Part shown: positions 14,156-36,995 of the stretch, in pieces
Layout: every line of letters starts with the position of its first letter
Position numbering within the stretch: position 1 is the first letter of the stretch
From: Gammaproteobacteria bacterium
GTDB lineage: Bacteria; Pseudomonadota; Gammaproteobacteria; Burkholderiales; SG8-41
Direction of reading: 5' to 3'
Assembly: GCA_041483135.1 (NCBI GenBank)
Contig: JBGPFE010000009.1
Location: 54,629 to 118,628, forward strand
DNA length: 64,000 nucleotides
Program-made: the position numbers and the translations under genes
The notes under the pieces: generated by a model
Told to the model about the DNA's origin: nothing
What the model saw: the letters and a program-made list of their open reading frames with translations, nothing else
Databases searched by the model: none

Positions 14156-14184
14156 TTGATTCCCTGAATATGGCCATTTATAAT
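14156..14184 (+). promoter_or_regulatory. Sigma70 promoter of phd-vapC module (possibly leaderless transcript)
   Basis: TTGATT (14156-14161), 17-nt spacer, TATAAT (14179-14184). ATG 14191 lies 7 nt after the -10. Confidence 0.55.
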
Positions 14185-14190
14185 ACACAA

Positions 14191-14436: not shown

Positions 14437-14834
14437 AAGTACTGCTCGACACCCATGTCTGGGTATGGTGGCTGACGCCAAATTCGCCGCTGTCCGGCAC
14501 GGAACGTTCTGCGCTCGACACGAGCGCCGCGCGCCAGGGACTCTTTCTTTCAGCCGTGAGCCTGTGGGAGGCTCAGGTGCTGCACGCCAAAAATCGGTTG
14601 AAACTACCGTTGCCGTTCGCCGACTGGCTCCGCCGGGCAGCCGACGAGCGCATGATTTCAGTGGTGCCGCTCGATACGGACGTGATCCTTGCCCTCGATG
14701 CGCTGCCGGAAACTTTTCATGGCGATCCGGCTGACCGCTTGATTGTTGCTACGGCATGTGCACACAGTCTGCCGTTGGCCACTCACGATGCGGCAATTCG
14801 ACGCAGCCGCACCGTTACGCTCTGGAAACCGTGA
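14346..14834 (+). CDS. vapC: PIN-domain VapC-family toxin (start uncertain; conserved core begins about 14433)
   Basis: Core LKVLLDTHVWVWWL...FLSAVSLWEAQVL...DPADRLIVATA...LATHDAAI. The only in-frame starts are GTG 14346 (91-nt overlap with phd) or CTG 14433 at the position of a usual ATGA junction. Confidence 0.8.
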   Translation: MGAPARAGRPPACRAGRVSAARRGLRGAALKVLLDTHVWVWWLTPNSPLSGTERSALDTSAARQGLFLSAVSLWEAQVLHAKNRLKLPLPFADWLRRAADERMISVVPLDTDVILALDALPETFHGDPADRLIVATACAHSLPLATHDAAIRRSRTVTLWKP

Positions 14835-16244: not shown

Positions 16245-16621
16245 CGAATCAGTTCCAGATTGAAACGTTTTTTCAGCTTTGACCAGGCCCTGTCCGCCGT
16301 CAGAATGCGTCCTTTCAGATATTTGCCGGTCGCCAGGCACACGCGGTCCCCAAGCGACAGGCCGGCGCCGCGAATTCGTTCAAGACAACCCGCCTCGAAG
16401 GCGAGATCGGAATCGAGATCGAGCAGCTTCAGGCGCATGGCAAGTATCGAATTCCGCAGGGCGATGGTGTCAATCTCCCTGCGCGCAGCAAACCCAATGA
16501 CCTCGGCCAGATTCACGACGTTCATGTACGCCTGCTCGTCCATCGCGGCGGCGACTCTATCCGCCCCGTCCTCGCGCAGGATCAGCGCGAGCAACGCGGA
16601 CGCGTCGAGCACGAATATCAT
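16241..16621 (-). CDS. vapC: PIN-domain VapC toxin
   Basis: 126 aa. MIFVLDASALLA..., NLAEV, GDRVCLA, LTADRAW acidic-residue pattern of PIN nucleases. ATGA overlaps at both ends (16618-16621 with vapB, 16241-16244 with hlyD). Confidence 0.88.
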   Translation of the reverse strand: MIFVLDASALLALILREDGADRVAAAMDEQAYMNVVNLAEVIGFAARREIDTIALRNSILAMRLKLLDLDSDLAFEAGCLERIRGAGLSLGDRVCLATGKYLKGRILTADRAWSKLKKRFNLELIR

Positions 16622-17031: not shown

Positions 17032-17385
17032 TCAGTGCTTGCTGTCTTTTTTCGCCGGCTCTGCCTTGGCCGCACCTTGCGCCTTGAGCCCGGCGACTAC
17101 CTGCCCCAGCTGCTGGTGCAGCGCGGCGAGCGTGTCGTAGCCGAGCGCAACGCGTACCGCGAGCTTGCCGGTCAGCGTCTCGGGAATTTTCCCGCCCGAG
17201 CGCGCGAGCTGCGACAGCGCCGCAAGCGCCGCCGGCTCGAGAAAACCGAAATCGACGAACACCATGCCCGGCGCGCCGTTGAGGCGCGTGAAGTTGGCGA
17301 GCACCGGCTGGTCGGAATTCCCGACCGGCGCGAGCCTGATGTTGAGGCCGACGGTTTTTTCCTGCTTTTCGTTCTGTTCTGCCAT
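17032..17385 (-). CDS. Small hypothetical protein, tentatively DUF3467-like
   Basis: Start trimmed to MAEQNEKQEKTVGLNIRL... (GGAAG RBS). The pattern LNI.L......LANFTRLNGAPGMVFVDFGFLEP....KLAVRVALGYDTLAALHQQL resembles DUF3467 (LNIEL..YSN...I.HS..EFV.DF....P...V..RI.L....AKRLL.AL). Confidence 0.7.
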   Translation of the reverse strand: MAEQNEKQEKTVGLNIRLAPVGNSDQPVLANFTRLNGAPGMVFVDFGFLEPAALAALSQLARSGGKIPETLTGKLAVRVALGYDTLAALHQQLGQVVAGLKAQGAAKAEPAKKDSKH

Positions 17386-17418
17386 GTAGTTGCTTCCTTG
17401 ATTAAGTACTCCGTTTTG

Positions 17419-17456
17419 CCCTTCACTCTTCACTCATTCACCCTTCACGTCACCTC
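17419..17456. repeat. Single array of TTCAC-containing 7/8-nt repeats
   Basis: TTCAC at 17422, 17429, 17437 and 17444, plus GTCAC at 17449. Lies between the giant gene stop and the next start. Confidence 0.7.
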
Positions 17457-20400
17457 AACCCAGTTTCACCAGCCCATCCTGCAATCCGGCGAGCGGCTGC
17501 AGGGTCTGCGGCGCGGAACCGAATTGCGCACTTGCCAATATGCTTTGCGCAGCATTAGTGGCAATGCCCGATAACGTTCCGTTCAACCCAAAGCGATACG
17601 CGAGATCGCCGCCGATAGCTTCAGTATCGCTGCCCGCGAGATGCGCATCGAGCAACGCGTTCATTACCGACCAGTGATTGGCATTGCTTGACGAAGCCGC
17701 CCGCGCCTGGTCGAATTTCTGCACGATCTTGCTGAAGTCGAACAGCTCGACTTTGTTGTCGCGCAACGTATCGGGGCCGCCCGGCGCGAAATCGCTCATC
17801 GCCTCGGCGATCACCTGCAGATTGAGCACGCTGCGGTTGTTCGCGTTCGCGTACCAATCCTTGAGCGTGACGTCTTCGTTGATCGCGGTCTGAAGCACAA
17901 GGCTGTTGCCCTGCTTGCTCAGGAACAGGTCGGCGTAGCGGATGCCGCCGCCGAGCGAGACCGTGTTGTCCTGCCCTGTGCTCGCCGCGACCGTGTCGTG
18001 GCCGTCGCCATGGTTGAACGCGATTACATCGGCGCCCGCGCCGGTCGTGATCGTGTCGTTGCCGGCTCCGCCAATGAACATCTCGTTGCCGGCGCCACCG
18101 GTCAGCGTGTCGTTGCCGTCTTTCGCGTAGAGCAGGTTGTTGCCGAATGCATCGGTCAATGTATCGTTGCCGTCATCGCCTTCGAGCAGGTCGTTGCCAC
18201 GGTCGCCGTTAAGCGCATCGTTGCCGCCGCCGCCGGCAAGGAAATCGTTACCGGCGCCGCCGAACAAGTCGTCGTTACCAAACCCGCCGAGCAGCACGTC
18301 ATCGCCGCTCGAAGCCCACAGCGCATCGTTGCCGTCGCCGCCGTCGAGCGTAACGTCACCGTAGGCGTAGTCCTGACTCGTCAGATCGATCACATCGTTG
18401 CCGGCGCCGCCTTCGATGCGCTCGATGCCGGAAATCCGCGGCACGCGGGTGCCGCCGGGGAATGCGCTGTAGCTATCGTCCAGCGCCAATACGTCATCGC
18501 CGCTCGTGCCGGTGAGCGTATCGTTGCCGCTGCCGCCATTGAATACATCGAACGAACGGTTCTTGCCGGCGATCACCGCGGTTTTATTGGTACTCGGATT
18601 TCCCGGGCTGCCGTCGTTGCGCGCGACAAACCCGCCATTCCATTTGCCGTCCGCATAGTAGATAAACCCATCGTCGCCGCCATTGCCGTTCAGCAGGTCC
18701 GTATTGCCAAGCCCATTCAGCGTGTCGTTGCCGGGCCCGCCGTTCAGCACATCGGGGTTCGGCGTGCCGACGAGGTTCAGGCCGCTACCCGTGCCGACCG
18801 TGACGTTGAATACATCGGATGCGCTCAGGCTGCCGCTATCAGTTGCGCCGACCTTGATCGATAACACCCCCGCGTCGGCGGCTGCCGGTGTACCGCTGAA
18901 GGTACGGGATGCAGCGTTAAATGCCAGCCACGACGGCAGCGGCGAGCCATCGGCCGACTGCGCGCTGTAGCTGAGCGTGTCGCCAATGTCGACGTCGGTA
19001 AACGTGTTGGCTGCGAACTGGAAGGCGAATGACGATCCCGCCGTGGCCGTCTGGTCCGCGATGGCATTCGAGAGCACCGGCGCATCGTTGGTGTTGGCGA
19101 CGCTGATATCGAAGGTATCGAACACCGAGGCGCCCGCAGTATCGGTCGCGGTGACCTTGATGCTGACGGCGCCAACGTCCGCATTCAGTGGCGTGCCGGT
19201 AAAAATGCGGGTTGCGGCATTGAACGTCAACCATGACGGCAGCGCACTGCCGTTGGCGCGCATGGCCGTATAGCCGAGTGTGTCGCCCACGTCCACGTCC
19301 GCGAACGTGTTGTCCGGAATCGTGAAACTGAATGCCGCGTCCTCGGTTGCTGCCTGGTCTGCAATAGCAGTGGCCAAAATCGGCGCATCGTTCGAATTGG
19401 CGACCGCCACGTCAAAAGTATCGAACGCGGAGGCGCCTGCCGTATCGGTTGCGGTCACCTTGACGCTTACCGTCCCGACGTCGGGATTCAACGGCGTGCC
19501 GGTAAAAGTATGGGTTGCGGCATTGAACGTCAGCCACGACGGCAGCGCACTGCCGTCTGCACGGTCGGCACCGTATGTCAGCGTGTCTCCCACATCAATA
19601 TCGGCGAACGTATTGGCTGGCAGCGTAAAGCTGAACACGCTGTCCTCGGTCGCCGCCTGATCCTCAATTGCGGTAGCCAGCATCGGCGCGTCGTTGGTGT
19701 TGGCTATCGTCACGTCAAACGTGTCGAACGCCGACGCGCCAGCTATGTCGGTTGCCGTGACCTTGATGCTCGCCGTGCCGACATCGGCGTTCAGCGGCGT
19801 TCCTGAGAACGTGCGCGTCGCTGCGTCGAACCCGAGCCAGTCCGGCAATGCCGATCCATCCACCGCCACCGCGCTGTAAGTCAAGGTATCGCCAACATCT
19901 ACATCGCTGAACGTGTTGGCAGGCAGCGTGAAGCTGAATGCGCTGTCCTCGCTTGCCACCTGATCCGCCATCGCATTGGCGAGAATTGGCGCGTTGTTGG
20001 TGTTGATGACTGTTAAATCGAACATATCAGTAGCGTTGAGGCTGCCTCCATCAGTCGCCGTGAGTTTGACACTGAACGTGCCGACGTCGTTGTTACCAGG
20101 CGTGCCGGTAAACGTTTCTGTCTCTGGATTAAACGCAAGCCATGCCGGGAGCGTTGAATCGTCGCTGAGCGAAACGGACAGCGTAAGCGTGTCACCAGCA
20201 TCCACGTCGGTAAACGTACCGACAGGCACAGTGAAATTGAATTGTGCATCCTCCAGCGCGCTCTGGTCGGAAACTGGGTTCGCCAACACCGGTTGGTGAT
20301 TTAAGGCAGTGCTGGTCACTGTTAGCTGGAACGTATCGGGTATCACGTACGTCCCAATGCTGGCGCCCGATACCTTCTCAGCAGCAGTAACCTTGACATC

Positions 20401-23400
20401 GATCGTACCGACATCCGTGCTGCCGGGCGTGCCGCCGAACGTCCGAGAATTACCGTCGAAGGTCAACCAACCGGGAAGCGCGCTACCGTCGGTCAGGCTG
20501 GCGGCATAGGCGTAGTCATGGCTGGAATCGAGGACATCAAAAAATGCGGTTGTCGAAAACTGTAGATTGAATGCGCTGCCTTGTGCGACGGTTTGATTAC
20601 CGATAGGGTCGGGTAGTGTGTGCAAGACGCCGGATGCGGCGCCGTTTGCCAATTGCTCGAGAGTTGTCGAATCCCAATACGAATGATCGGCAAATTGAAC
20701 ACGCTCTACGGCATAGCCAGAAAGCGGAAACCAGCGAATTGCCAGTTGGTCCTGAGTACCGTTGATTCCTATGTATATGTTGTCGTCGTCCCGCGTGATA
20801 GCCAGATCGGTTGAGGAGATGCCATCGCCCAACGCAATCTTGTCGAAATTCCCAAGATTCAGATCAAAATCGATAATAGAATCCTGGCCTGACCCGCGAC
20901 CGAATACATACGTGTCATTGCCCGCGTTCCCGCTTAACTTGTCGTTGCCGGCTCCACCATCCAGCACATCGTTCCCGTCCCATCCAAACAAGCTATCGTC
21001 GCCGCCGGATCCATTGACAATATCGTTACTGAATGTTCCGTAAAAGACATCAGAGCCGCTTGTAGGCAGAAACGCCTTGGCGTACAGATTATTGACTTGC
21101 CAGACTGTCCCGTCGCTGAATCGGACCTGCTCGACGTTATCTCCCTCGAAATCATTCAATGAAACTGAGAACCAGTGATCCAATATGACCTGATCGCTCG
21201 TGCCGCTGAGTGTAAGGAACAGCCGTCCCGCATTTGTCGAGGGCGGGTCGGCGGAAACAATGATATCTGCCGGTGCGATAGTAGCGCCGAACTCAATCGT
21301 GTCGACGCCTCCTGAACTATCACCCCTGTCGGAAGTAAAGCTGCGCGCGGTAAGGCCTGAAGGCGGTGCTTCGACGACCAGATCGTTCCCGAATCCGCGA
21401 TCGAAGCGGTAGACATCGTCGCCGAGGCCGCCATAGAGATCGTCGTTGCCGGGACCGCCTATCAAAATATCGTTGCCATCTCCCCCGTACAGGAAGTCAA
21501 CTCCATTCCCACCGGCAACGATATCGTTGCCCGCATCGGCAGCAATGCGATCGTTGCCGTCGTCCCCGGATAAATTGTCGTCACCATCACGGCCAGAAAT
21601 GTAGTCGTTTCCTGCGAGTCCCGCGATGACATCAGAGCTCGTAGTTCCGGAGAGAAAATCATTGCTAGCGCTGCCGATAGTATTCATGCGATTGGCCAGA
21701 TCGCTGAAGGACCAGCTAGTCCCGTCGCTGAATTGGACTGACGCTGGAATTGCAATGCTCGAAAGTCCACCCAGCGATGCGAGCCCGTTCTTGATCGTGA
21801 TCCGATCGGCGCCGGCCCCCACGATAATATTCAGATCGCCACTAGCGAAGCTATTGAATGTCGAAGTGATCGTTGCGGTCAGTTGGACATCTGCCGGAAG
21901 GATTCCGGTACCGAAAAAGATGCTGTTAGAACTGGCGGCGGTGCCGGTGCCACTACTATCCTGGTAGGTGTCCTGGCCGAAGCCGGGATTAAATATGTAG
22001 CGGTCATCACCGTCTCCGCCACGTAGCGTGTCATTGCCTGAGTTGCCCGTAATTGTGTCGTTGCCCGAGGCACCGGTTATTGTGTCATTGCCTGCCAGCC
22101 CGTCAATGACGGCATCCTTAAATGACGACGTAGTGGAAGCATTTATCGTGTCATTCCCGTTCGTTCCCGTGATGTAGTTTCTGTAATAGTCGGCAAGGTC
22201 CCACACTGTTCCATCGGAGAATTCAGCTCGCTCAACCCGATTTGCGCCAGGACTCGCAACCAGGGAAAGACGGTCGCTGCTACCGGCAAGATTGAAAAAA
22301 ACATGCGAGGCATCACCACTAACCGATATATCTTGCGGCCGAACACCCGCTGCGAAACGGATGGTATCTGTGTCGGTGAAGAATACCCCTTGACTGTACA
22401 GTTCATCTATTGTGTCGCGCCCCGAACCGTACCCAAATAAATAAATGTCATCGCCCTGCTCTCCCCAGAGCGTATCATCACCGGCTCCGCCATCGATTAT
22501 GTCGTTCCCGTCGCCGGCAAAACACTGATCGTTGCCGGCCTCGCCAAACAGAACATCATCCCCGGCCTCGCCCGTAAGCATATCGTTGCCGCTGCCACCG
22601 CTCAGTGTGTCATCACCATCCCCGCCATATAACCGGTCAATACCCGAGCCCGCCGCAAGTACATCGTTACCGTCGTTTCCCTGAATCGTGTAATCGCCGC
22701 CATCGACAGTGATCGAGTCGTCCGTTGATAGCCCATATAGATAGGTCCGGCCACTGATAATCAAAGGTCCGCTTGCTTGACGAATGTAATCCAGATCCCA
22801 TACCGTTCCATCGCTGAAATCCAAGGTGAAGCCGTCATCGCCGCGAAAGAGCGCGTCATACAGCATGATCTGATCTGTTGTGCCTTGGTGGTACAACGTG
22901 ATGACTTGATTGACGTCCGGGGCCCCGACAATAATATCGGCGGGCGCAATCCCGGCACCAAACACCAGCTTGTCCTGCCCTAACCCGCCGCCGAAATAAT
23001 CGTCGCTAATAATATCCTGCCCCCAACCCGCCTCGAAGAGCATTGTAGTGACCCCCGCGGCACCGCTGAGGAAGTCATTCCCCGCGCCGCCTTCGAGATA
23101 GTCATCTCCTGCACCGCCGATGAGAGTATCGTCGCCGCCGTCACCGTAGAGCAGATCATTCCCGTCGCCGCCTTTGAGCGTGTCGTTTGCGCTGCCTCCA
23201 AATAGTGTGTCATTCCCAGCTTGCCCGAGCAGCCGATTACTTTTGCTATCGACGGCAAGCACATCATCGGACGGTGTTCCCGAAATCGCTCCTCCGGATT
23301 CCAGCAATGCGTATTCGAGACGTTGTGCCACATCGTCTGGCGTGAGAACTGTGCCGTCGGCAAATACGAACCGCGAGATAGAAACATTCTTTGAAAATGT

Positions 23401-26400
23401 CGGATCGAACCACGACGTGATATTCAGTTCGTCATCAGTGCCGCGTATCCTGATACGTAATGAATAAGGGTCCACATTGGAATCGGACGTAGTCAATTCA
23501 TTACGCGTGAACATCACGTCATCAGGAGACACGCCAGTTTTGAAAATTACGGCGTCTTTCGTATAGTTCACACCGTTCGAAGTGCTGTCGATAACATCAT
23601 GGCCTGAACCCAACCCAAAGAGATACGTATTGGCGCCGGTGAAGCCGACTAACTTGTCGTCGCCTGGTCCGCCATCCAGGATATCGTCGCCACGGTCACC
23701 TTTGAGCGTGTCATTGCCGTTGCCGCCAAGAAGAAAGTCATCACCGATCCCGCCCACGAGTGTGTCGTTACCATCACCACCTTTGACTACATCGTTACCG
23801 CCGTTGCCGAAAATACTGTCATCCCCTCCCCCGCCATCCAGTCGGTCATCGCCCGCCTGCCCTATCATGAAGTCGGTGCCGCTGGTCGCGTTTTGCGCGG
23901 CAAACCACTTTTGCGTCAGGACTTGCTCGTTCCAGACCGTCCCGTCGGCGAAACGGACTTCCCTGATTGAATAGATCGGTGTGGCTACACGGGGCGGCGT
24001 TTCGATTTCGCCATACCAACTGAGAATCTTCAGCTGATCTGCGCCGCCGTTGAGTGAAAGAATCAGATTGTCCCGACCAGTAGCTGAATACGAGGGATCG
24101 ACGTCAGTAATAACAGTGACATCCGACGGTTGAACGCCCGGCAGCATCTGCACCACATTTCGTATAGTCCCGTAACCCGCGTTGCCGGATCCAGTGCTGA
24201 AATAGTCAAAAACCTGAACGGTGTCATGACCATAACCGTTGCCGAAAACTATCGTGTCGTTACCTCGGGAGCCGGAACTCACACCATCAAAAATGGTGTC
24301 GTCTCCGGGGCCACCGTCATGGGTATCTGCCCCCGGCGAACCGTTCAACTGGTCGTTGCCGTCACCGCCGCGAAGTGTACCCGTGCCGAAAAGTCGGTCG
24401 TCGCCATCGCCGCCCAGCAAAACGTTGATGCCTTGCAAATCGCTCAGGAGATCGTTTCCAGGCCCGCCATCCAGCGTGTCATTGCCGGTACTGTCGGAAA
24501 GGGTATCGTCGCCGCCCATGCCGGACAGAACGTTGTCGCTTGCATTGCCGCTGATAGTGTTATTTACCGCGTTGCCGGTGCCGACGCGCGCCGTGCCTGT
24601 AAGCGTCAATTTCTCAATTTCTCCCGACAATACATAATCACTGCTCGCTTGCACCTCATCGGTGCCCTCGCCTGGCAGTTCGGTCGCTACGTCGCTAGGA
24701 TTGTCGACTTTATAGATATCATTGCCGGGTCCGCCCACCATGGTGTCGATACCCGTTCCCCCGTCGAGAGTATCGTTCCCGCCTTGTCCTTCGAGTATGT
24801 CGTCGCCGGCCCCACCGGTAAGCGTATTCGGGTTCGCATTCCCGATGATGTGATTATTGTCAGCGCCGCCGCTCCCTGCCGTTGCCGACCCCGTAAGAAT
24901 CAAATCTTCGACGTTGGCCGACAACGCGAAGCTAACGCCGGCTTGTACGGTGTCATGACCTTCGTTCGCATTTTCGATTACGGTGTCGAAACCATTGTCG
25001 ACGATGTAATAATCATCGCCTCGACCTCCGCGCATCTGATCGAATCCGGTCCCGCCATCGAGCCGATCGTTGCCGTCCAGACCGTTCAGGATATCGTTCC
25101 CACCGAGACCCTCGATTTGATCGTCAGCTGGCGAACCCGTTAGCGTGTCATTGCCCGCCGTACCCTGGACGACTGTCAGCGCCTGGGCCAATAACGCGCT
25201 TCCGCTTAGCGTTGTCCCATCGGCAAACTCGTAGCTCTCGATTTGGATGCCGTCGGAAATATACAAACTATCACTGGTGCCGTAAGAAACCCTAAGCCAG
25301 GTTGCCCCTAATCCTTTTGTGGCGACAAGAGAGTTTGCAGTAATTCCCGGGCCAAAAACAACGCGGTCATTGCCGCCTGCGTCATCGGTGAGTTGGTCAT
25401 TGCCATCCCCGCTATTGAACAAGTAGGTATCGTCGCCGCTCTCCCCAATCAAAACATCATTGCCCGTACCGCCGATGAGCGTGTCATCGCCGGCTCGCGA
25501 CTGAATGAAGTCATTGCCGCCTTTGGCGTCTATGAAATCGGGATCGTTGACGCCGAACAGCACATCATCGTTACTGGTGCCGACGACGTTAAATCCAAGA
25601 CTCAGCAATTCTTCGTAATCAAGGCGCGTGCCGTCGACGAATTCGAAGAACTCTATCGTGTGTGGTCCGTGGACATCGTTTGGATCGACAGTTTCAAGAT
25701 GAATGGCATCGCCCTGATCGCCGACGTGGATGAGCAGCGACCCCCCTCCCAGCGACAGAGAATCCGGTGTAATGCCCTCTCCGAAAATCAGCGTATTGGG
25801 CGCACCGGAAGTGGACATGTCAGTAATGTGATCGACACCGTCGCCCAGATTGAACAGGTAGGTGTCGTTGCCGTCGCCACCGGTCAGCGTGTCGTTGCCG
25901 CGGCCTCCCGAGAACGTATCGTTGCCGCCGTTGCCGGTGAGCGTGTCGTCGGCCGTGCCGCCCATCAGATTGTCATCGCCAGCGGTGCCGGACAGATTCT
26001 GTGGCGTGATCAGGGTGTGGCCGAGGAACTGCGCCCAGGTCTCGACACTGCCGTCGGCGTATTCGACCGACTCGATGTTGCCCTGCAAGCCATCCTTGAC
26101 CGCGATGGTGTCGGTCGCAGTATATTGAATGCCTAAATACTGCGGATTTTCTTCTGGAACGAACGTGATAATGCTGGATGCCGATATGCCATCGCCGAAT
26201 TTGATGCGATCGACACCCCCCTCGTCTTCCAGCGTGTCGTTGCCATCACTCGCGTTGAAGCTATAGACATCGTCGCCAACTCCGCCCAACAGCGCATCGT
26301 TGCCGGAGTCACCCGCAAGCTGGTCGTTGCCATCTCCACCTTCGAGCTGATCGTCTCCTGTCCCTCCGAATAAAGTATCGTTGCCGCCGAATCCCTGGAG

Positions 26401-29400
26401 TACGTCGTTGCCCGCTTCCCCATCGAGGTAGTCGTCACCCTGGTAGGCAACCGGGATGTTGTCGCCGTCCCCGGCCATCTGGTCATCGCCATCACCACCG
26501 AAGAGGGTGTCGCTGCCGCCCTGACCGAGCAGGATGTCGTTGCCCGTGCCGCCATCGAGATAATCGTCACCGTGAAATTGGGCGTCGAGCAAATTACTGT
26601 CACCAGACAGCTGATCGTTGCCGTCGCCGCCGAAGAGGGTATCGTCGCCGCCGTCGCCGAAGAGCTTGTCGTCCCCCGCTTCGCCGTCGAGATAATCGTC
26701 GCCGTGAAATTGCTGGGCGAGCAGATCGTGGTCCCCGGAAAGCTCGTCGTTGCCGTCGCCACCGAACAATGTGTCCGACCCGCCCTGGCCGAACAGAAGA
26801 TCATCGCCGCCTTCGCCGTTGAGATAGTCCGCGCCGTCCGCCTGTGGATCGGAGTAGACAGCGCTGCTGACATCGTACGTCGCGGTGTCGCCGAGCAAGA
26901 CATCGTTGCCATCGCCGCCGAACAGCGTGTCGGCATCTTCCTGACCGACGAGCCGGTCGACGCCATCGCCGCCCAGCAGCAGATCGTCACCGGCGCCGGC
27001 CCAGATCACATCATCGCCGGCTCCGCCATCCAGCACATCGCTTTCATCCCCCGCCGCGCGCGGATCGCCGCCAAAGCCCGTGAACGAATAGAGCGGCGCA
27101 TCCGGCGTGCCCGATTGGATCACCGTCCAGCCCTGGCCTTCAGCTACGACGTTCCCGGTGTGGATGCCGCCAACGCCAACGGCAGTGTACCCATCCCCCC
27201 CAAACAGAAAATCGTTGCCGTCGCCGCCATTGATTACGTCGGAACCGGCGCCGCCAGCGGCAACATCGTTGCCTTCGTCACCGGTCAGGTAGTCATCATC
27301 TGCGCCACCTTGCAGCGCATCATTGTCGAGACCGCCATAGAGCTCGTCGTTGCCGCCGGAGGCGATCAGGATGTCGTTGCCTTCTTCGCCATATAGGTAT
27401 TGGTCACCATCATCGTTGGTGATGATGTCGTCGCCAAGTCCACCCCAGCCTTCGGCCTGCGCAAGGCTTACGCTGATGCGATCATTGCCACCAAAGCCGA
27501 ATATTTTTTGCAGGAATGAGGTGCTGGTAAGAGTGTCCGCGCCTTCCGTGCCGTCAAGTTCCGTTTTTTGAAGGGGATCGGGAAACAAAAGATGGATGCC
27601 GAGTTCGCCATCATGAAAATTCTGAACTACAACTTTTTCCGGGCTGCCGTCCTTGGTGATCGTCAATATTCCAGGGGAGTTTACTTTGCCCGTAAATTGA
27701 TACTGAAATCCGTTGCTATCCTGAAACTTCTTCGGGTCGTCGCCGGGCACCGCACTCTTGTCTCCGGTCAAGTCCTGGCCCTCAACAACGATCTTGCCCT
27801 GACCATCCCCCGCGCTCTGAGAGTTCAGCAATCCGGCGTAATCGATAATTTCATCGCTGTCCGAGCTGCGCTCGACAATATAAGTATCGAAGCCGCTGCC
27901 GCCCCGTATTACATCCTTACCCGATCCACCAGTGAGCGTGTCGTCACCCGCGCCGCCATCCAGGGTGTCGAAGCCACGCCCACCCACCAGCGTGTCAGAG
28001 CCGGTGCCTCCCGATATCGAGTCATAACCGTCATCGCCCTCGATGTAATCGTCACCGAATCCACCGCTGATCGTGTCTCCACCTCCGCCACCATACATGT
28101 GGTCATTCGCAATTCCACCGTTGATCGTTTCAGCGTTATCGCTACCAAAGATGAAACGATCGACTCCGATATTAGGACCGAAGGTGATTTTTCGTGGTAT
28201 GTCCTCAAAGTGAGCCTGGACTTGCGCTGAAAGCGCTCCGTCTACGCGGTTATAGCGAATATAGTTTGCCAACATCGTGGCTCGATCTTCGAGCCATTTA
28301 TCTGTAAGAGTGCCGCTGTCGTTGTTTACATCGTAAAGATTAAGTTCACCGCTCGCGTTGTGCTGCGTATAGATCGTGTTGTCGCCAACAATGGCAAATG
28401 GGTTAAGTTCCCTGAGCGCATAGCGGTACCCAAGCGCTTCCGAGCCTTGGGCGATATTGGAAAGATCGGTGGCATTGGTGCCAACAAGACTATCCAAGAA
28501 CAACGACGGGTTGGCTTTAACTAGATTTTCTAGCTCAAGCAATTTGTCAAAATATTTCCTGCGACCATTAATGTCGCCAGCACCGATTCCAGACAAACTA
28601 GATGCGTCTACCAACGGTAAGTCGGTTAAGCCTGTTGTCCGGTTTCCGAAGACTTTGTAGAGCGCATCAACCAGCTTTTCCTGGGTATCCTTGGCCTGGC
28701 GCGAGGCCGCCTCGAAAAGCGCGGTCATGTCTGAAAGTCCAAGCGCGTTGTTCATCCGGTACAACAGCGCTTGCAGCGCGAGGCTGTCCATAAACGGTTC
28801 AATCAGGTGGCTGTTGGCCTCGGTTGCAACCGGCTGCCGTGGACTTAAAGCTGTATCGTTGGTAATAACGCTTGATACTATGTTTATATCATCTCCGGGC
28901 GCCTCATCCTCGCTCTCGAAGTTGTGAATCGGAAGTCCATCAAACGTTGACGTTGGCGGCGTACCCAGGAAACGCCCGAAAAGGTCCACCAACTCATCGG
29001 TAAGTTTAAACGGTGCTGTGCCAATGGCAGTCGCAATCCCAGCAACGGGACTGCGGGAAAGAACTCCCACAAGGGTTCCCAGAATGACACTCGAATATTC
29101 TGGGTCAAACCCGGGAGCGTTGTATGTGTAAGCATCCTTCACTAAATCTGGAAACAATCTCGCGGCGAGTGCCGCGAGGTGTCCGCCCAAGCTGTGCCCA
29201 GTGACAACGATTTGTTCTCCAGAACCAATAAGATTCAACCCTTGCCCGGTGAAGTTTGGAGTGAAATACAAATACGCTGCACCGCCTCGCAATGGAATGC
29301 TCGGTAGGATGGAAGGTTGGGTTGTAGATACATTCCATTGAAGCTGAAGAACGTCCGTCTTAGTCTCAGGTGCTCGTAACCGCAAAATGAAATTGACCAT

Positions 29401-29823
29401 CGATACCGCTTGCGATAGCGCAAGACCGATGAAGCCTATCTGAGCGAGATCAGCAGCAAATAGGTCGAGCCCCAGTTGGGTCGTCGGTTCGGTTCCTCGA
29501 AATGCAAGCACTTTTTCACTCGTTCCACCAGATTGACGTTGGAAAAGGATTGCAGCAAAACCAGTTCCGTCATTTCCGTAGTAACCATTACGATTAGGGC
29601 CGAAGTCTGGGATGGCCCAGACGGGCTGGCTGCTGGCTTTGGCTTGGTCGGAGTCCTTGTCGAATGTCTGGTTCGCTAGCGCTGATGGAATGCGTTTCTG
29701 ATCGTCTGCATTTGCAAGCCTAGCAACTGTCGCGCCATCGAGAGGTTGTCCATCCAGAATCACGTAGGCAGCGGTGGCGAGCTTGGAAAACTCGTAGTAA
29801 TCAAGAATATTGGGCATGGCCAT
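17455..29823 (-). CDS. Giant (4122 aa) T1SS-type protein: N-terminal class-3-lipase-like alpha/beta hydrolase, RTX blocks, haemolysin-type Ca-binding-related modules, six cadherin-like repeats
   Basis: GHSLG nucleophile elbow (Ser211, nt 29191-29193) followed by YTYNAPGF. Many GGxGxD runs. About 11 modules of type Y.F..G.G.D.I.D......I.F..GI...D. Repeats NDAP(I/V)L...D.D.GDTL.Y......LP.WL.F....TF.GTP. No signal peptide. The likely true start is the second ATG (29817), 6 nt after AGGAGG. Confidence 0.93.
18790..20615 (-). repeat. Six tandem about 300-bp coding repeats (cadherin-like/dystroglycan-type domains)
   Basis: For example, attgaacgtca(a/g)cca(t/c)gacggcagcgcactgcc recurs at 19219 and 19519 (period 300). 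The protein repeats are about 100 aa each, and the first is divergent. Confidence 0.9.
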
Positions 29824-30582: not shown

Positions 30583-31517
30583 GGGGTCAGGTCTTGAATC
30601 TTGAATCATGCGATCCCTCCCGTTTGATGACCTTGCTCACCGATGAATAATGAAGCCCAAGATAGGCCGCGATCGCCGCTTGCGAGTAGCCATGGCGCAT
30701 TGCGGCTTCGACGATTGCGCGATTTCGCTGAGGACGTCCATTCAATACTTTCACCGTGAGAATCCCTCCCAGGCTGGGCCGGCCAAGAAAGCGCTGTTCG
30801 CGCCGCATCTCTCGCAGGCCGTGGCGGGGACGCTTCAATTTGGCGATGAACGCGGCACTTCCCAGGATGACCTGGGCTTCCAGCCCCTTCCATGGGCTGG
30901 GAGCCTTGATCCCCTCAGCTACGAATGCCCGATAGCGCTTCTGCGCAGCCGACTGATGCCTTCCGAATTGCCCGAGTATCCAATCGCAGGTCAGATAGCC
31001 GGGCGCAGGAGACAGGCCGGCGGTTGCACGATAGCTGCTCCATTGGTAGTCCTGCGCCCTTCCCACCATGCGCGCTCGCACGGGATTGAGTACGACGTAG
31101 CGGCAGAGTTCCAGAAGATAGCTGTCGCGATCCACCACGATCGCCTTGAATCGCCCCTGGAAAACATGCCCGACGCGATGATGCCGGCGATTAAACCTCT
31201 GGGTGTAGATCCCATTGAGCTGGCGCATGCCGGCACTCAAATTCGCCTCGGTGGTCTCGATCATGAGATGGTAGTGGTTGCCCATTAAGCAGTAGGCGTG
31301 AAGCAGCCAGTTAAATCGCGCGATCGTCTGCTCCAGCACGGACAGGAATTCGCCCCGATCGGCATCATCTTCGAAGATCTTCCTACGCGCATTCCCACGT
31401 GCCGTTACGTGATACACGGCTCCCGGAAACTCGATTCGAAGCGGCCTGACCATTCTTAGCGTTCCTTCGAATCAGCTCCCAAACTCACCATTAATTCAAG
31501 ATTCAAGACCTGACCCC
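30583..31517 (-). mobile_element. RAYT unit: Y1 transposase gene bracketed by perfect 24-bp inverted repeats
   Basis: GGGGTCAGGTCTTGAATCTTGAAT at 30583-30606. Its exact reverse complement is at 31494-31517. Confidence 0.8.
30587..31453 (-). CDS. REP-associated tyrosine transposase (IS200/Y1 HUH family) with C-terminal HTH
   Basis: 288 aa. GAVYHVTARGN, HUH motif GNHYHLMIE, Tyr motif RYVVLNPVRARMV. C-terminal GYSQAAIAAYLGLHYSSVSKVI resembles a DnaA-C-like HTH. Confidence 0.85.
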   Translation of the reverse strand: MVRPLRIEFPGAVYHVTARGNARRKIFEDDADRGEFLSVLEQTIARFNWLLHAYCLMGNHYHLMIETTEANLSAGMRQLNGIYTQRFNRRHHRVGHVFQGRFKAIVVDRDSYLLELCRYVVLNPVRARMVGRAQDYQWSSYRATAGLSPAPGYLTCDWILGQFGRHQSAAQKRYRAFVAEGIKAPSPWKGLEAQVILGSAAFIAKLKRPRHGLREMRREQRFLGRPSLGGILTVKVLNGRPQRNRAIVEAAMRHGYSQAAIAAYLGLHYSSVSKVIKREGSHDSRFKT

Positions 31518-32216: not shown

Positions 32217-34349
32217 TCATTGTGTTTCTCCCAGCCGCACCACTTCATCGACCTTCAATCCTTTCGGCAACTGATGCGCGATGAACAGCATCGACACCTT
32301 CCCCTTGAGCTGATTTACGGTCTTTGCAAAACTCTCTGCGGTGGGCTCATCCAGACTGCTAGTCGCCTCGTCGAATATCAGTATCTTCGGCCGCTTGAGT
32401 AAGGCGCGCGCGATTGCGATGCGCTGTTTCTGTCCTCCTGAAAGTCCCACACCGTGCTCTCCGATCACGGTCTGGTAACCCTCGGGCAATTTCTCGATCG
32501 TCTCGTGTATCTCCGCGAGCTTGCATGCCTGGATCACCTGCTCGAAGGTCGCGTGCGGGTTGGCCAGGACCAGGTTGTCGTAGATCGTGCCTGAGAAAAG
32601 TATCGTCTCCTGCGGCACAACGCCGTAATGCTGTCGCAACTCGTTTGCGGAAAAATGACGGATGTCGCGGTCATCGATCAGAATCGCGCCGTCGTTCGGC
32701 AGGTAAAAACCCTGCATGAGCTTGGCGAGCGTGCTCTTGCCCGAGCCCGACGGACCCATCAGCGCGATGCATCGCCCTGGCTCTATCGTGAGATTCAAGT
32801 CGCGGTAAAGGAAAGGCAGGTTCTCGGCGTAGCGGAAGCTCAGGCCCTTGATCTCGAGCTTGCCTCTGCCCCCGCCTTCGCGTGCGGGAACCATCGAATA
32901 CGGCTCGGCCGGCGCGTTCATCACGTCACCGATGCGTTTCACTGCGACGCTCGCGTTCTGAAACTCCTGCCACAGGCTCACCATGCGCAGGAGCGGCCCC
33001 GACAAGCGGCTGGCGAACATCTGGAACGCGACCAGCATGCCGATCGTCATGTCAGTCGAGTTCATAACGATCCACGCGCCGACGCACAGTACGGTCAGCG
33101 TCACGAGCTGGTCGAGCATATTGGCGACCGAGTTGGCCGTGTTCGCGATCTGGCGCGTGTTGAACCCCGCGGCAAGGTACGCGGACAGGTATTCCCCGAA
33201 CCGGTCTTTCAACTGCGGCTCCATCTGCAATGACTTGACCGTCTCCATGCCGGCGACGTACTCGGTGAGAAACGCCTGGTTGCGCGCGCCGAGCAGGAAT
33301 TGCTGGTTCAATCGTTCGCGCAGCAGCGGGGTAGCAAAGAAACTGATCGCGGCGATACAGAGCAGGATCGCGAGCACGAGCAGCGTCAAGAGCCAGCTGT
33401 AATAGAACATGACGCCGAGGAAGATGAAGAGGAACGGAATGTCGAGGCAGAGCGTCACCGCCGCGCCGCTGATGAATTCGCGGATCGTCTCGACCCCATG
33501 CACTCGCGCGATCAGCACGCCGGTCGGCCGGTGCTCGAAAAACCGCGGCGGCAGCTTGAACAGGTGCTCGAACACCTGCAGGCCGAGCACGGCGTCGATG
33601 CGGTTTCCCGTATGCAGCACCAGGTATTGCCGCACCCAGGTCATGATGGTGCTGAAAAGCATGAATACAACGAGCCCGATGCCGATCACGGCCAGAGTGC
33701 TCGCCGTGTGATGCACGATGACCTTGTCGATCACGACCTGGGTGAAGACGGGGGTTGCCAGCGCCATCAGCTGGATCGCGAGCGAGGCGAGCAGCACGTC
33801 GCGCCAGATCTCCCTGTGCTTGAGCAGTTCGGGGATGAACCACCGGAAGCCGAATTCAGGCTTCTCCTGCAGCAGCGGATCGCCTTCGACGGCGCCTTTC
33901 GAGCTCGCCTGGAACAGGATGACCTGCCCCGAGTACTGCGCTGCGAATTCGGCCAGGGCAGCCTCGAATGGATTCTTGCTCTTCTCGTCGAAGAGCAGCA
34001 CACGCACGTCGTTCGCTTTCAGGACGAGCGCGAGACGATACGGCCGCGGCGCTTCGGATCGGGCCGCATCACCCGGGTCGTTCGCGGCGGAATCAGGGTG
34101 CGGCGCGGAAGCCGGCTTCAGCACCGCCAGGCACGGCAACGGCAGGTTCGCGAGGTCGGCCACCGAAGCCTGCTTGATGCCCGCTTTCAGCCCCAGCGCT
34201 TCAGCGGCCTGCTGCAATGAATTGAGGCTGTACGGCGGAGCGACCTGCTGCAGCACGAGATTGGGGGCAAACGGGACGCGCTGCAGATGACACATCCCCT
34301 GGAGTCCCCAGACGAAGGTGTCTGTCGCGAATAGCAGATTGCTATCCAA
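32217..34349 (-). CDS. hlyB: HlyB-type T1SS ABC transporter with N-terminal C39-like domain (CLD)
   Basis: 710 aa. TTG start after GGGAGG. The N-terminus MDSNLLFATDTFVWGLQGM aligns with E. coli HlyB MDSCHKIDYGLYALEIL and has no Cys at the catalytic position. Walker A GPSGSGKST, LSGGQKQR, ILIFDEA. Confidence 0.92.
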   Translation of the reverse strand: MDSNLLFATDTFVWGLQGMCHLQRVPFAPNLVLQQVAPPYSLNSLQQAAEALGLKAGIKQASVADLANLPLPCLAVLKPASAPHPDSAANDPGDAARSEAPRPYRLALVLKANDVRVLLFDEKSKNPFEAALAEFAAQYSGQVILFQASSKGAVEGDPLLQEKPEFGFRWFIPELLKHREIWRDVLLASLAIQLMALATPVFTQVVIDKVIVHHTASTLAVIGIGLVVFMLFSTIMTWVRQYLVLHTGNRIDAVLGLQVFEHLFKLPPRFFEHRPTGVLIARVHGVETIREFISGAAVTLCLDIPFLFIFLGVMFYYSWLLTLLVLAILLCIAAISFFATPLLRERLNQQFLLGARNQAFLTEYVAGMETVKSLQMEPQLKDRFGEYLSAYLAAGFNTRQIANTANSVANMLDQLVTLTVLCVGAWIVMNSTDMTIGMLVAFQMFASRLSGPLLRMVSLWQEFQNASVAVKRIGDVMNAPAEPYSMVPAREGGGRGKLEIKGLSFRYAENLPFLYRDLNLTIEPGRCIALMGPSGSGKSTLAKLMQGFYLPNDGAILIDDRDIRHFSANELRQHYGVVPQETILFSGTIYDNLVLANPHATFEQVIQACKLAEIHETIEKLPEGYQTVIGEHGVGLSGGQKQRIAIARALLKRPKILIFDEATSSLDEPTAESFAKTVNQLKGKVSMLFIAHQLPKGLKVDEVVRLGETQ

Positions 34350-34459
34350 CGCGTTCCTCCCGCGTACCGCTGAAGCTTTTCTTATTGATTACTGCTTCGG
34401 ATCTCGGCGGCCCCTCGAAGCCCTGAGGCTTCGTCCTATTTCCTCACTCCACCGCCTGT

Positions 34460-34510
34460 TTTATATTTAAGCCAACTAGTTCACGGATAGCAAGTCTATC
34501 AAAACGATAG
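34460..34510 (-). promoter_or_regulatory. Candidate hlyB promoter core plus GATAG/CTATC repeat operator
   Basis: Minus-strand TATAAA (34460-34465), 111 nt upstream of the hlyB start. GATAG-N5-CTATC-N5-GATAG at 34486-34510 covers the -35 region. No good -35 hexamer. Confidence 0.35.
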
Positions 34511-34847
34511 ATTTCGATTAATCGTCTTTTATTACAATAGGATGGAACCGGCTATCACCTTCGGCCTAGGCAATTATTTTTGCCAGGGCAGAAACCGGCA
34601 GTCACGAAATATTCTTAACAGACCGCAAAAATGAGTCTACCTAAAGGAAGGCAATCAAAGCTGTAGGGGGAAGCCGACACTTGGCGTCAGGTTTTTCCTG
34701 ACAAGCGCCGGCCGCACCGTGCGCCGGGAGAAAAATGGGGACTGCGAGTTACGGGAGGGAAGAAACTTTACCGGCGAGCGATCGCCGCTGGAGCGCTGGA
34801 TTCCGTACGAAAACTTAAAATCGTCGAAGGCGCAACAAACGGTGCCG

Positions 34848-35441
34848 TTATTTTTGCGGCCCGGTCCGCTTTGCGTCGTCCGTGGCGGTGACTTTCACTT
34901 CGGGTCCGCTGCGCTTTTCTTCATCCTTGGCGATGACTTTCACTTCCGGTCCGCTGCGCTTTGCGTCTTCCGTGATGATGACTTTCACATCGGGCGGGTT
35001 CGCTCGCGGCTCCTCCAGCGATACCGCTTTGTTCTGCTCCTCGACATGCCGCGTGACCGCCTGGACGTGCTCGAAGCGTACCGTATCGACCTGGCGCGCG
35101 AATTGCTGGTAGACGACGTAGGTGAGCACGGAAGCAAGTACCGCAAAAATCACGGCCTCGACGCCAAGCTTTTTGTGCGCGGTGGCGCCTTCCGGAAAGA
35201 ACATGAGCTGCACGCCGGTTTCGGCCGCATGAAGCTTGGCGTCGTACATCGCGCGCTTCTTCTGATCGGACAGGATCTTGTAACCCTCGCGGATCAGGGT
35301 GAGCTCGGTCATCGTCTCCGTGGTGCCGCGCATGCTCGTGGTCGCGCCCAGCTTCTGCGTCAGGCTCGCGTACGCACTGTCGATCTGGGCCTGATCTGCA
35401 TCGTGCGGCACGCCGAGCATTTCATAGAATGTCCTTTTCAT
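34848..35441 (-). CDS. J-domain-like membrane protein lacking HPD, with C-terminal 15-aa repeats
   Basis: Start trimmed to MKRTFYEMLGVPHDADQAQIDSAY... (GGAG RBS). J-like helices (...IREGYKILSDQKKRAMYD) but LTQKLGATT replaces K.HPD. TM helix VEAVIFAVLASVLTYVVY. Repeats PEVKV....D..KRSG x3. Confidence 0.75.
   Translation of the reverse strand: MKRTFYEMLGVPHDADQAQIDSAYASLTQKLGATTSMRGTTETMTELTLIREGYKILSDQKKRAMYDAKLHAAETGVQLMFFPEGATAHKKLGVEAVIFAVLASVLTYVVYQQFARQVDTVRFEHVQAVTRHVEEQNKAVSLEEPRANPPDVKVIITEDAKRSGPEVKVIAKDEEKRSGPEVKVTATDDAKRTGPQK
34863..34992 (-). repeat. Tandem 40/45/45-bp coding repeat
   Basis: The unit ggtccgct(g/t)(c/t)gc...gtgactttcac(t/a)tc(g/c) repeats three times. It encodes the P(E/D)VKV... 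repeats. Confidence 0.85.
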
Positions 35442-35458
35442 GGCGGCACTCCGTTGGC

Positions 35459-35743
35459 TCACGACTTATGTACTCCGGTGTGCTTAGGCATTACGTTGTG
35501 TTTTTTCGCGCGCTGCAGCAGGGATTGCGTCTGCAGGCCGTGGTCGTAGTTCGCGCGCGCAGCGGGATCCGACAGCGTGCGGTAGGCAAATTGCACGGCG
35601 ACGTATTGCTCGCGCGCAGTCGCGCTGTCTTTATTGGCGGGGTTGCTGGGATCGAATTTCCTGGCGAGCCTGAAAAACGATTGCTGGATTGCTTTTTGGC
35701 TCGCCTGCGGCGTGATGCCAAGCTGCTCGTATAACGTTTTCAT
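35459..35743 (-). CDS. Small J-domain-like protein lacking HPD
   Basis: 94 aa. MKTLYEQLGITPQASQKAIQQSFFRLARKFDPSNP...FAYRTLSDPAARANYD aligns with the DnaJ J-domain, but HPD is DPS. Its stop overlaps the alternative GTG start of the next gene. Confidence 0.75.
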   Translation of the reverse strand: MKTLYEQLGITPQASQKAIQQSFFRLARKFDPSNPANKDSATAREQYVAVQFAYRTLSDPAARANYDHGLQTQSLLQRAKKHNVMPKHTGVHKS

Positions 35744-35856
35744 GCGCCCCCTCCCCCGATACGCAACATGTAACTAGACATCGTTTTAGCATTAGAATCA
35801 AGGTTGTAATCTCGTGTCAAATCTGTCGATTTGATAGATTTTCTCTAAGCGGTTGA

Positions 35857-36107: not shown

Positions 36108-36995
36108 TTGATCCATTTTTCCGGCGCGGACAGCGGAGCGTTCCTGCACGCTCAACTCAGTTGCGATGTCGAAAGCCTGCAGCCGGGGCAGGCCCGGTAC
36201 GGAAGCTACAACTCGCCGAAAGGCAGGATGCTCGCGAGCTTTCTGCTGTGGCGGAGCAACGCCGGATACGTGATGGACTTGCCGCGCGCCCTGCGCGAGC
36301 CGATACGCAAGCGGCTGGCGATGTATATCCTGCGCTCCAGGGTCACGGCGACCGACATCAGCGACGATCATGTATTGATCGGCATCTTCGGCGTGCGCGC
36401 GGAAGCGGCTTTGAAGCCCCTGTTCGATACGATCCCCGCGGCTCCGCTCACCATGACGACCGACCGGAACGCGAGCCTGCTGCGACTCGATGCCAATCGC
36501 TTTCTCATCATGGCCTCGCCCGCGCGAGCGCCGGAGCTGCGGGACGTGCTGGGCAAAGACGCGGTTCCCGTCACCCAAACAGTCTGGAACTGGACCGATA
36601 TCAGAGCGGGCATCCCGTATATCACGCTCGCCACGCAAGAGCAGTTCGTGCCGCAGATGGCGAATCTGGATCTGATCGGCGGCGTGAGCTTCACCAAAGG
36701 CTGCTACCCCGGGCAGGAGATCGTTGCGCGCATGCATTACCTCGGCAAGTTGAAGCAGCGCATGTATCTGGCCAATGTCGCCACCCGGGAAGCGCCGCAG
36801 CCGGGAGACAAGCTCTACAGCGCCGATACGGGAGATCAGTCGAGCGGCATGATCGTGAACGCCGCGCCCTCCCCCGACGGCGGGCACGATGTGCTGGCAG
36901 TGATCCAGATCGAAAGCGCCCGGCGCGGCGAGGTGCGCTGGAAGTCGCTCGACGGGCCGCTGCTCAAGTTTCTCGAATTGCCGTACGCGTCTTGA
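36108..36995 (+). CDS. ygfZ: Folate-binding tRNA-modification/Fe-S protein YgfZ (N-terminus uncertain)
   Basis: Signature FTKGCYPGQEIVARMHYLGKLKQRMY. The ORF-track start is TTG 36108, but conserved-looking sequence continues upstream (..ATVFADLSESG). Confidence 0.85.
   Translation: MIHFSGADSGAFLHAQLSCDVESLQPGQARYGSYNSPKGRMLASFLLWRSNAGYVMDLPRALREPIRKRLAMYILRSRVTATDISDDHVLIGIFGVRAEAALKPLFDTIPAAPLTMTTDRNASLLRLDANRFLIMASPARAPELRDVLGKDAVPVTQTVWNWTDIRAGIPYITLATQEQFVPQMANLDLIGGVSFTKGCYPGQEIVARMHYLGKLKQRMYLANVATREAPQPGDKLYSADTGDQSSGMIVNAAPSPDGGHDVLAVIQIESARRGEVRWKSLDGPLLKFLELPYAS

Follow-up and report, generated by a model that had tools for sequence, protein, structure and literature searches.

In the import motor of mitochondria, two small J-fold proteins, Pam16 (Tim16) and Pam18 (Tim14), are paired at the membrane; one lacks the histidine-proline-aspartate (HPD) tripeptide of the J-domain, one is anchored in the membrane by a single helix, and their J folds pair with each other. 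A similar arrangement is described for the chloroplast NDH complex, where, according to the account in PMC9407819, NdhT (DJC75) and NdhU (DNAJD15) form a J/J-like pair with membrane helices and act as structural subunits, not as chaperones. The definition of a J-like protein given in that source is a structure resembling the J-domain that has no HPD. The tripeptide itself is essential for the classical function, as replacement of its H or D abolishes ATPase stimulation in every tested system (PMC8215388). Bacterial J-like proteins are essentially uncharted because large surveys of J-domain proteins drop non-HPD sequences at the outset, as far as the selection described in PMC10410713 goes. Here, we describe a pair of neighbouring genes, named J1 and J2, in a stretch of 64,000 nucleotides (the window) from a Gammaproteobacteria bacterium (Burkholderiales, SG8-41; assembly GCA_041483135.1, contig JBGPFE010000009.1, positions 54,629 to 118,628), in which the pair stands directly upstream of the type I secretion gene hlyB. 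With a J fold present and HPD absent, both products are J-like proteins by the above definition. With moderate confidence, we read them as a pair that acts independently of Hsp70 at the inner membrane, that had YgfX as its ancestral partner, and that only secondarily came to lie beside, and probably to be co-regulated with, an operon for a large RTX protein.

Both genes are located head to tail on the minus strand. J1 (35459-35743), called as an open reading frame (ORF) with a match to PF00226, encodes a soluble protein of 94 aa with a basic isoelectric point of 10.1, and 17 nt separate its stop codon from the start of J2 (34848-35441), a single-pass membrane J-like protein identified by ORF, Pfam, family alignment and AlphaFold model. 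The mechanical ORF call for J2 starts at GTG 35462 and yields 204 aa. The start was set at ATG 35441, giving 197 aa, because every homologue begins at this position with MKR(S/T)FYEML and a GGAG is found 7 nt upstream. From its N-terminus, J2 consists of the J-like domain (residues 1-75; 35217-35441), a conserved LMFFP linker, the membrane helix (residues 92-114; 35100-35168) and a disordered tail. The 19-residue Kyte-Doolittle mean reached 2.24 at residues 92-110, and AlphaFold modelled one long helix over residues 86-140. A tandem repeat (34867-34994, minus strand; period 45 bp, 2.8 copies, 83% matches in Tandem Repeats Finder) encodes three P(D/E)VKV..(D/E)..KR(S/T)G units within the tail, for which the predicted local distance difference test (pLDDT) of the AlphaFold model was below 50. 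In a protein comparison, the relatives P0004 and P0002 carried one and two units, respectively, and the array has therefore grown recently. An original prediction, made from the letters of the window, had proposed two ORFs with J-domain helices at this site and a membrane helix plus three repeats in the larger product, and had named variation of the repeat number between strains as a check; both proposals were borne out, and among relatives the number does vary, as the one, two and three units just mentioned show. J1 and J2 share 28% identity over 69 residues. A plus-strand ORF of 276 aa (34719-35549), antisense to both genes, was unsupported and was dismissed as a GC-rich antisense artefact.

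The J fold was apparent from profile searches and from structure models. Against PF00226 (DnaJ; profile length 63, curated cut-off 27.8 bits), J1 scored 54.4 bits (E 1.3e-14) and J2 39.5 bits (E 5.9e-10), each covering profile positions 2-63 of 63, and no other Pfam family, Sdh5/SdhE included, was matched by either protein. A profile of the J1 family in turn matched solved J-domains with E-values down to 5.6e-13. The AlphaFold model of J1 shows four helices with a pLDDT above 90 over residues 1-70, and that of J2 contains the four J helices, likewise above 90. When the latter was compared with solved J-domains in Foldseek, the target template modelling score reached 0.87, and NdhU (9grx_U) was among the matches. 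Hence, the similarity that had been proposed from the helix pattern is significant and spans the full profile in both proteins.

The residues by which J-domains work with Hsp70 are missing, as seen in an alignment to E. coli DnaJ taken from the K-12 record. The position of H33-P34-D35 is occupied by D-P-S in J1 and by G-A-T in J2, and that of R36 by N and T, respectively. The basic face of helix II, R22/K23/K26 in DnaJ, corresponds to Q20/Q21/F24 in J1 and to D21/S22/A25 in J2, although J1 keeps R25, R28 and K29 on this helix. The loss reported earlier, DPS in the 94-aa protein and no HPD in the membrane protein, applies to the whole family: all 28 J1 sequences have D-P-x without the histidine and an invariant Q21, while nothing resembling HPD occurs in any of 48 J2 sequences, in which D21 is nearly invariant and helix II is neutral to acidic. 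Thus, neither HPD nor the basic face of helix II, two features of a functional J-domain co-chaperone, is present. As the docking and stimulating elements have gone in both families, a role as Hsp70 co-chaperone is unlikely, and judging by these residues the two proteins most likely do not act as co-chaperones of DnaK. No Hsp70 gene was found in any of the fetched neighbourhoods.

Next to ygfX, the pair is found again and again. We compared 15 genome loci, obtained by a scan with a 20-sequence subset of the J2 alignment, 18 metagenome loci and several contigs retrieved by exact protein look-up, and mapped the proteins of the window and those of neighbouring genes onto them by tblastn; the locus counts depend on contig ends. 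About 19 distinct loci keep the J1-J2 pair, and every one of them belongs to an uncultured member of the Betaproteobacteria. A recurring cassette carries TANGO2, sometimes DUF4936, and ygfZ on one strand and J1, J2, ygfX (PF07254, Cpta_toxin/YgfX), a gene for an LVIVD-repeat protein and cobW on the opposite strand. In 15 distinct loci the pair is divergent from ygfZ, and in 15 the PF07254 gene starts at most about 120 bp after J2. Membership in this family was confirmed by hmmscan, with 55.9 and 37.3 bits at a cut-off of 27.3 bits, compared to 169 bits for YgfX of E. coli. In the window, the ygfZ-like gene (36108-36995, plus strand) is divergent from J1 and encodes a folate-binding protein with a GCV_T domain, assigned by Pfam and by synteny in 15 loci; homologues of ygfX, the LVIVD-repeat gene and cobW are absent from its 64 kb, so that these displaced genes, provided that they have been retained, must lie outside the window. 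Loci L051 and L052 hold J1-J2-ygfX after sucAB-lpd-zapE and without ygfZ, from which we conclude that J1-J2-ygfX is the core unit. In L014, J2 is followed by ygfX and J1 is absent.

The same gene order is familiar from the sdhE (ygfY/cptB)-ygfX (cptA) locus of Gammaproteobacteria. In E. coli K-12, ygfX and sdhE lie on one strand and ygfZ diverges on the other, so genes for small cytoplasmic proteins precede ygfX in either case. Since J1-J2 and sdhE both stand before ygfX and divergent from ygfZ, the pair holds the sdhE slot. This likeness is positional only: SdhE is a five-helix assembly factor for flavin adenine dinucleotide and not a J fold, it is one gene against two, and in the window ygfX has been displaced by the secretion cluster. 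YgfX is described as a multimeric membrane protein that binds SdhE in Enterobacteria and whose role as a toxin is disputed, according to the account in PMC8621075 and the references cited there.

Several further observations were made on these loci. After single J2 genes, a conserved 130-aa protein with two membrane helices and without a Pfam family is encoded in L001 (10560-10952), L015 (10826-11227) and L030 (6469-6870); what comes next to a J2-type gene thus tends to be the gene of a small membrane protein with two helices, either YgfX or this one. The LVIVD-repeat protein (420 aa; L027 11053-12315, with homologues in L014, L018, L019, L025 and L028) is 92-96% identical between metagenome-assembled genomes (MAGs), whereas the neighbouring genes reach only 50-80%, an unusually high degree of conservation, and a cobW-type GTPase gene always follows it. 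An A8 stretch puts J1 out of frame in L051 (9650-9910) and L052 (3050-3310), which were assembled independently from one organism, while J2 and ygfX remain whole; the break reflects either an error of sequencing, a pseudogene or slippage at the homopolymer. Finally, L016 (9950-10350) contains a truncated J2 of 115 aa (63% identical) without a J1 ORF, preceded by sequence like the 3′ end of the window's J1 and the J2 ribosome-binding site, which probably makes it a decayed duplicate.

With regards to size and spread, 28 J1 homologues of about 88-106 aa were collected with identities of 51-78%, and 1.84 billion cluster representatives, searched exhaustively with a profile, contained only 29 J2-type clusters at E ≤1e-30. 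Beyond these follows a looser set of proteins that combine a J-like domain without HPD at the N-terminus with a membrane helix and a charged tail. All placeable loci come from MAGs labelled Betaproteobacteria or Burkholderiales, save two bins labelled Streptomyces and Chitinophaga, which look mislabelled or contaminated; the samples were soil, peat, groundwater and lakes. Public records name the J1 and J2 proteins 'molecular chaperone DnaJ', 'CbpA' or 'Sec63', labels that are almost certainly wrong. NCBIfam gave sub-threshold matches only, confined to the J-domain. PADLOC returned no matches for J1, J2, YgfX or the proteins of the secretion cluster that have no assignment.

Pam18 keeps HPD and stimulates mitochondrial Hsp70, whereas J1 and J2 are both without it; the sequence relation is that of the J fold only, a translocase context is absent here, and J1:J2 pairing is putative. 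NdhT and NdhU are eukaryotic or plastid proteins, NdhT retains its J-domain, and NDH is unrelated to our loci. DjlB and DjlC of E. coli also combine an N-terminal J-domain with a C-terminal anchor in a proteobacterial inner membrane (PMC8215388). However, they contain HPD or HPE, stimulate HscC and are encoded near hscC, while J2 has GAT, is not flanked by an Hsp70 gene and extends for a sizeable stretch past its membrane helix, and so falls outside the DjlB/DjlC type. AtcJ of Shewanella, a J-protein of cold adaptation, resembles J1 in length (about 94 aa), in having a J-domain with a short tail and in being the first gene of a small operon. Its J-domain is nevertheless a functional HPD domain, as reported in PMC6715715, and as model NF050028 has a cut-off of 150 bits and gave J1 only 27.4 and J2 only 18.4 bits, neither protein is a member of its family. 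ARC6 and its cyanobacterial counterpart Ftn2 (ZipN) are membrane proteins with an N-terminal HPD-less J-like domain that act through protein-protein contacts in the assembly of the FtsZ ring, but they are much larger, multi-domain, and homologous in the J fold only; E. coli CptA/YgfX has been reported to affect FtsZ and MreB, and a link to cell division at our locus would be pure analogy. By way of analogy, then, Pam16/Pam18 and NdhT/NdhU are the closest working models and the sdhE-ygfX operon is the closest genomic one. Literature searches turned up neither a bacterial operon encoding two J-like proteins nor a J-like protein associated with YgfX, and nothing relevant on J-domain proteins in type I secretion.

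Upstream of J1, a putative promoter for both genes was located on the minus strand (35791-35820), with TTGACA at 35815-35820, an 18-nt spacer and TCTAAT at 35791-35796. A strict sigma-70 consensus scan called no promoter there; still, the block CTTGATTCTAATGC, whose TCTAAT fits a −10 box, is invariant across at least 20 related loci, and we infer the J1-J2 promoter from this pattern. The −35 box is abutted by a 19-bp palindrome, ATCTATC-N5-GATAGAT, which has only two matches with up to three mismatches in the 64 kb (0.17 expected by chance). Both are operator-like and read on the minus strand: ATCTATC-N5-GACAGAT before J1 (35821-35839) and ATCTATC-N5-GATAGAC (34494-34512), about 145 nt upstream of hlyB and followed by TTGCTA. 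In 16 of 22 related loci the palindrome occurs upstream of J1 with 0-3 mismatches, always abutting TTGACA and with a fixed 72-77 nt between its end and the J1 ATG; it is kept in L051, where ygfZ is absent, and in L014, where J1 is absent and it stands upstream of J2. The copy on the hlyB side recurs downstream of J2 in L050 (perfect) and in L035 (3 mismatches). Elsewhere in approximately 600 kb of fetched DNA no palindrome was found other than before hlyB in the window, L050 and L035, and single J2 paralogues have none upstream.

Outside the palindrome the J1 and hlyB promoters differ, so they have a binding site in common and are not copies of one promoter. The original prediction that hlyB and the J genes have promoter motifs in common is hereby confirmed for the palindrome and extended to most relatives. 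Its half-sites, TCTATC and GATAGA, resemble those of tetO with a wider centre, which suggests a helix-turn-helix dimer as the binding protein. No regulator gene is conserved in the neighbourhood, and the palindrome fits none of the boxes known for Fur, Zur, FNR, NsrR, OxyR and LexA. The palindrome shared by the two promoters is the strongest argument for co-regulation, and the J operon and the secretion operon are probably co-regulated in the lineage of the window, as far as sequence can indicate.

As stated in the original prediction, the pair has the same orientation as the secretion genes and lies directly upstream of hlyB, with a 498-bp spacer between J2 and hlyB. A terminator-like, strand-neutral hairpin directly follows the J2 stop codon (34829-34846); it was called on the plus strand, and on the minus strand the stem is the same and the T-tract imperfect. 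If active, it would separate the J1-J2 transcript from hlyB. The further claim of a shared A/T-richer tract holds weakly, with a GC content of 0.56-0.57 at 34-36 kb compared to 0.61-0.63 in the flanks, and the dip stems mostly from two AT-rich intergenic regions. Three genomes show nucleotide-level conservation of the hlyB leader of approximately 145 nt (34350-34493, minus strand), which has counterparts in L050 (1825-1976) and L021 (about 1900-2050); it contains the hairpin GAAGCCTCAGGGCTTCG (34416-34433) and might be a regulatory 5′ untranslated region. Rfam gave nothing in either intergenic region or in this leader.

Whether J-like proteins are linked to type I secretion, as had been supposed, depends on the lineage considered. 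Secretion genes or the hlyB leader were found near a J gene in the window and only in four other loci, L050, L035, L021 and L013. L050 is the closest relative of the window (83% identity in J2, 81% in YgfZ), and its downstream spacer is homologous to the hlyB leader; the same leader follows J2 in L035. One clade of a YgfZ tree unites the window with L021, L033, L034/L037 and L035, and all ygfX-linked loci fall outside it; the trees are neighbour-joining trees of short proteins, and the YgfZ fragment of L050 was too short to be included. A single juxtaposition event fits these data, since the window, L035 and L021 share a YgfZ clade and L050 is closest by identity. Outside this clade, most genome loci have the pair without a secretion gene within up to 10 kb, and hlyB and hlyD are absent from all 18 metagenome loci fetched with J1. 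The supposed linkage therefore stands within one clade and fails for the family (15 ygfX loci; 0 of 18 metagenome loci), and the proximity to secretion genes appears to be a lineage-specific juxtaposition.

These distributions bear directly on the idea of J1 and J2 as accessory factors dedicated to the type I system beside them, which might, for example, hold or target the giant RTX substrate or dock on the C39-like domain of HlyB. In its favour speak the common strand and the position directly upstream of hlyB, the palindrome that occurs before J1 and hlyB and nowhere else in the 64 kb, the hlyB-type leader after J2 in L050 and L035, the hlyB gene adjoining J2 in L021, and the J2 paralogue two genes after hlyD in L013. 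However, the linkage expected of an accessory component was absent from at least 15 other distinct loci; outside one clade it is ygfZ and ygfX that are the constant neighbours, and the operator is an ancestral part of the J promoter that has no specificity for secretion. The cluster of L013 has other surroundings, and two unrelated genes intervene there; in the window, J1-J2 and hlyB are set apart by the hairpin and a separate promoter, and the literature gave no link between J-domains and type I secretion. We thus consider this explanation improbable, and a dedicated role in secretion is not plausible. To about the same low degree, the pair might still belong to the Hsp70 machinery as non-stimulating components, for instance membrane-tethered decoys or recruiters to which DnaK, HscA or HscC would bind at a non-canonical surface, or Pam16-like regulators of a true J-protein. 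The fold is strongly kept (pLDDT >90), J1 retains R25, R28 and K29 on helix II, and eukaryotic J-like proteins provide precedents, as described in PMC11349236 and PMC9407819. Against it, a pair in which both members are without HPD holds no active J-domain to regulate, helix II of J2 is neutral to acidic with D21 nearly invariant, and Hsp70 genes were absent from the fetched neighbourhoods.

The position before ygfX and divergent from ygfZ, which is that of sdhE/cptB in E. coli, together with a promoter-proximal palindrome of the kind typical of autoregulated toxin-antitoxin operons, could also point to a CptA/YgfX-type (type IV) toxin-antitoxin-like module in which J1-J2 supply the antidote in place of SdhE/CptB. 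This we deem slightly less probable still: the pair survives without ygfX in the clade of the window, PADLOC found no matches, J1 gave no SdhE/Sdh5 signal in Pfam, and the toxin-antitoxin nature of CptBA is itself disputed, as PMC8621075 has it. A very remote prospect is that J1 itself binds the palindrome as a DNA-binding autoregulator, by which hlyB would be tied to the J operon. DNA is bound by another J-protein, CbpA, J1 is basic (isoelectric point 10.1) with a basic tail, the operator always travels with J1 or J2, and no regulator gene is conserved nearby. Yet sequence-specific DNA binding is not a property of the J fold, the half-sites resemble those read by helix-turn-helix dimers such as TetR, and L014 keeps the operator although J1 is absent.

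The explanation that we prefer, an Hsp70-independent pair with YgfX as ancestral partner, would work as follows. J1 would be a basic protein of the cytoplasm, and J2 would be anchored in the inner membrane by its one helix, presumably with the J-like domain facing the cytoplasm. The J fold would serve as a protein-protein interaction module at the membrane, with J1 and J2 probably forming a complex by analogy with Pam16/Pam18 and NdhT/NdhU, and the pair would be the cytoplasmic or membrane partner of YgfX, a two-helix protein of the CptA family, in this lineage. A dimeric regulator would bind ATCTATC-N5-GATAGAT next to the −35 box. In the clade of the window, the accessory RTX cluster would have taken over the position of ygfX directly downstream of J2, and as hlyB carries the same operator, both units would probably be co-regulated without being mechanistically interdependent.

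A number of observations weigh against this explanation. More distant, single J2 paralogues exist without J1 or ygfX. Some of them lie among TctC genes (L001-4, L012, L015 and L030), followed by the 130-aa two-helix membrane protein, which is unrelated to YgfX, and others lie between argF and argG (L005-7, L017); a pair and a single copy can even occur in one MAG (L015 with L024; L012 with L026). Moreover, the pair persists in the clade of the window without an adjacent ygfX, and an obligatory partnership of J proteins and YgfX is for this reason not demonstrated. The contacts between J1 and J2, and between these and YgfX, are proposed from analogy and from gene order, respectively, and the sequences would be compatible with a residual, non-canonical binding to DnaK. 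On the secretion side, L021 has ygfZ, then hlyB and J2, with J1 missing, so adjacency has survived a rearrangement, and in L013 a single J2 paralogue is found two unrelated genes beyond hlyD. Together with the shared operator, these two loci go beyond bare coincidence and leave room for a tie to secretion. A more specific version of our explanation, in which an HPD-less heterodimer has taken the SdhE slot as the partner of YgfX and a regulator with tetO-like half-sites was recruited to the operon of a giant RTX adhesin in one clade, is possible but clearly more doubtful than the general one.

The secretion cluster itself runs on the minus strand in the order hlyB, a lipoprotein-like ORF, a RAYT-type Y1 transposase gene, a membrane protein gene, the RTX gene, a 122-aa ORF and hlyD. 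The HlyB-type ABC transporter (32217-34349) was assigned by ABC_membrane, ABC_tran and TIGR01846 (618.8 bits), and a weak Peptidase_C39 match marks a degenerate C39-like N-terminal domain. The presumed secretion substrate is the RTX protein of 4122 aa (17455-29823), with 37 HemolysinCabind stretches as well as He_PIG, Big_9 and HCBP_related domains, and the HlyD-family membrane-fusion protein (14871-16340) reached 330 bits in TIGR01843 at a cut-off of 208.65. The lipoprotein-like product and the membrane protein of the cluster, of 239 and 242 aa, respectively, show no J similarity. The 122-aa ORF (17035-17400, minus strand) is more conserved than the RTX gene and hlyD on either side of it: identity to the L013 counterpart is 86%, compared to 70% for hlyD and 65-70% for the RTX protein; it has neither a Pfam nor a PADLOC match and may be an accessory protein of secretion.

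The RAYT-like gene (30587-31453, minus strand), placed between hlyB and the RTX gene, encodes an IS200-type Y1 transposase domain with a C-terminal helix-turn-helix, and a degenerate copy follows J2 in L021. The last 75-130 nt or so of hlyD are repeated twice downstream of the intact gene (13929-14003 and 12066-12194) with 90-93% nucleotide identity, and copies of this 3′ end also occur in L013 (9014-9160) and L021 (7479-7571). In the window, they bracket toxin-antitoxin-like cassettes, one Phd/PIN-like (14170-14834) and one Xre-like/RES-like (12957-13861), and it looks as if the hlyD 3′ end were the insertion site of such cassettes, which duplicate this target. Because of the RAYT gene, the toxin-antitoxin cassettes and the duplicated hlyD 3′ ends, the secretion region looks accessory.

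While J-like proteins are known mainly from organelles, the pair described here is a clean and conserved bacterial case: one operon with two J-like proteins, a predicted promoter and operator, and as constant neighbour YgfX, a protein of disputed function. The secretion angle carries lesser weight, since it appears to be an arrangement of one lineage in which co-regulation is possible. Annotators may note that labels such as 'molecular chaperone DnaJ', 'CbpA' and 'Sec63' almost certainly mislead. If the more doubtful, specific version of our explanation were true, the pair would be a bacterial counterpart of J-fold pairing of the Pam16/Pam18 type without Hsp70. The pair offers a route into the biology of YgfX and into that of a J fold uncoupled from Hsp70.

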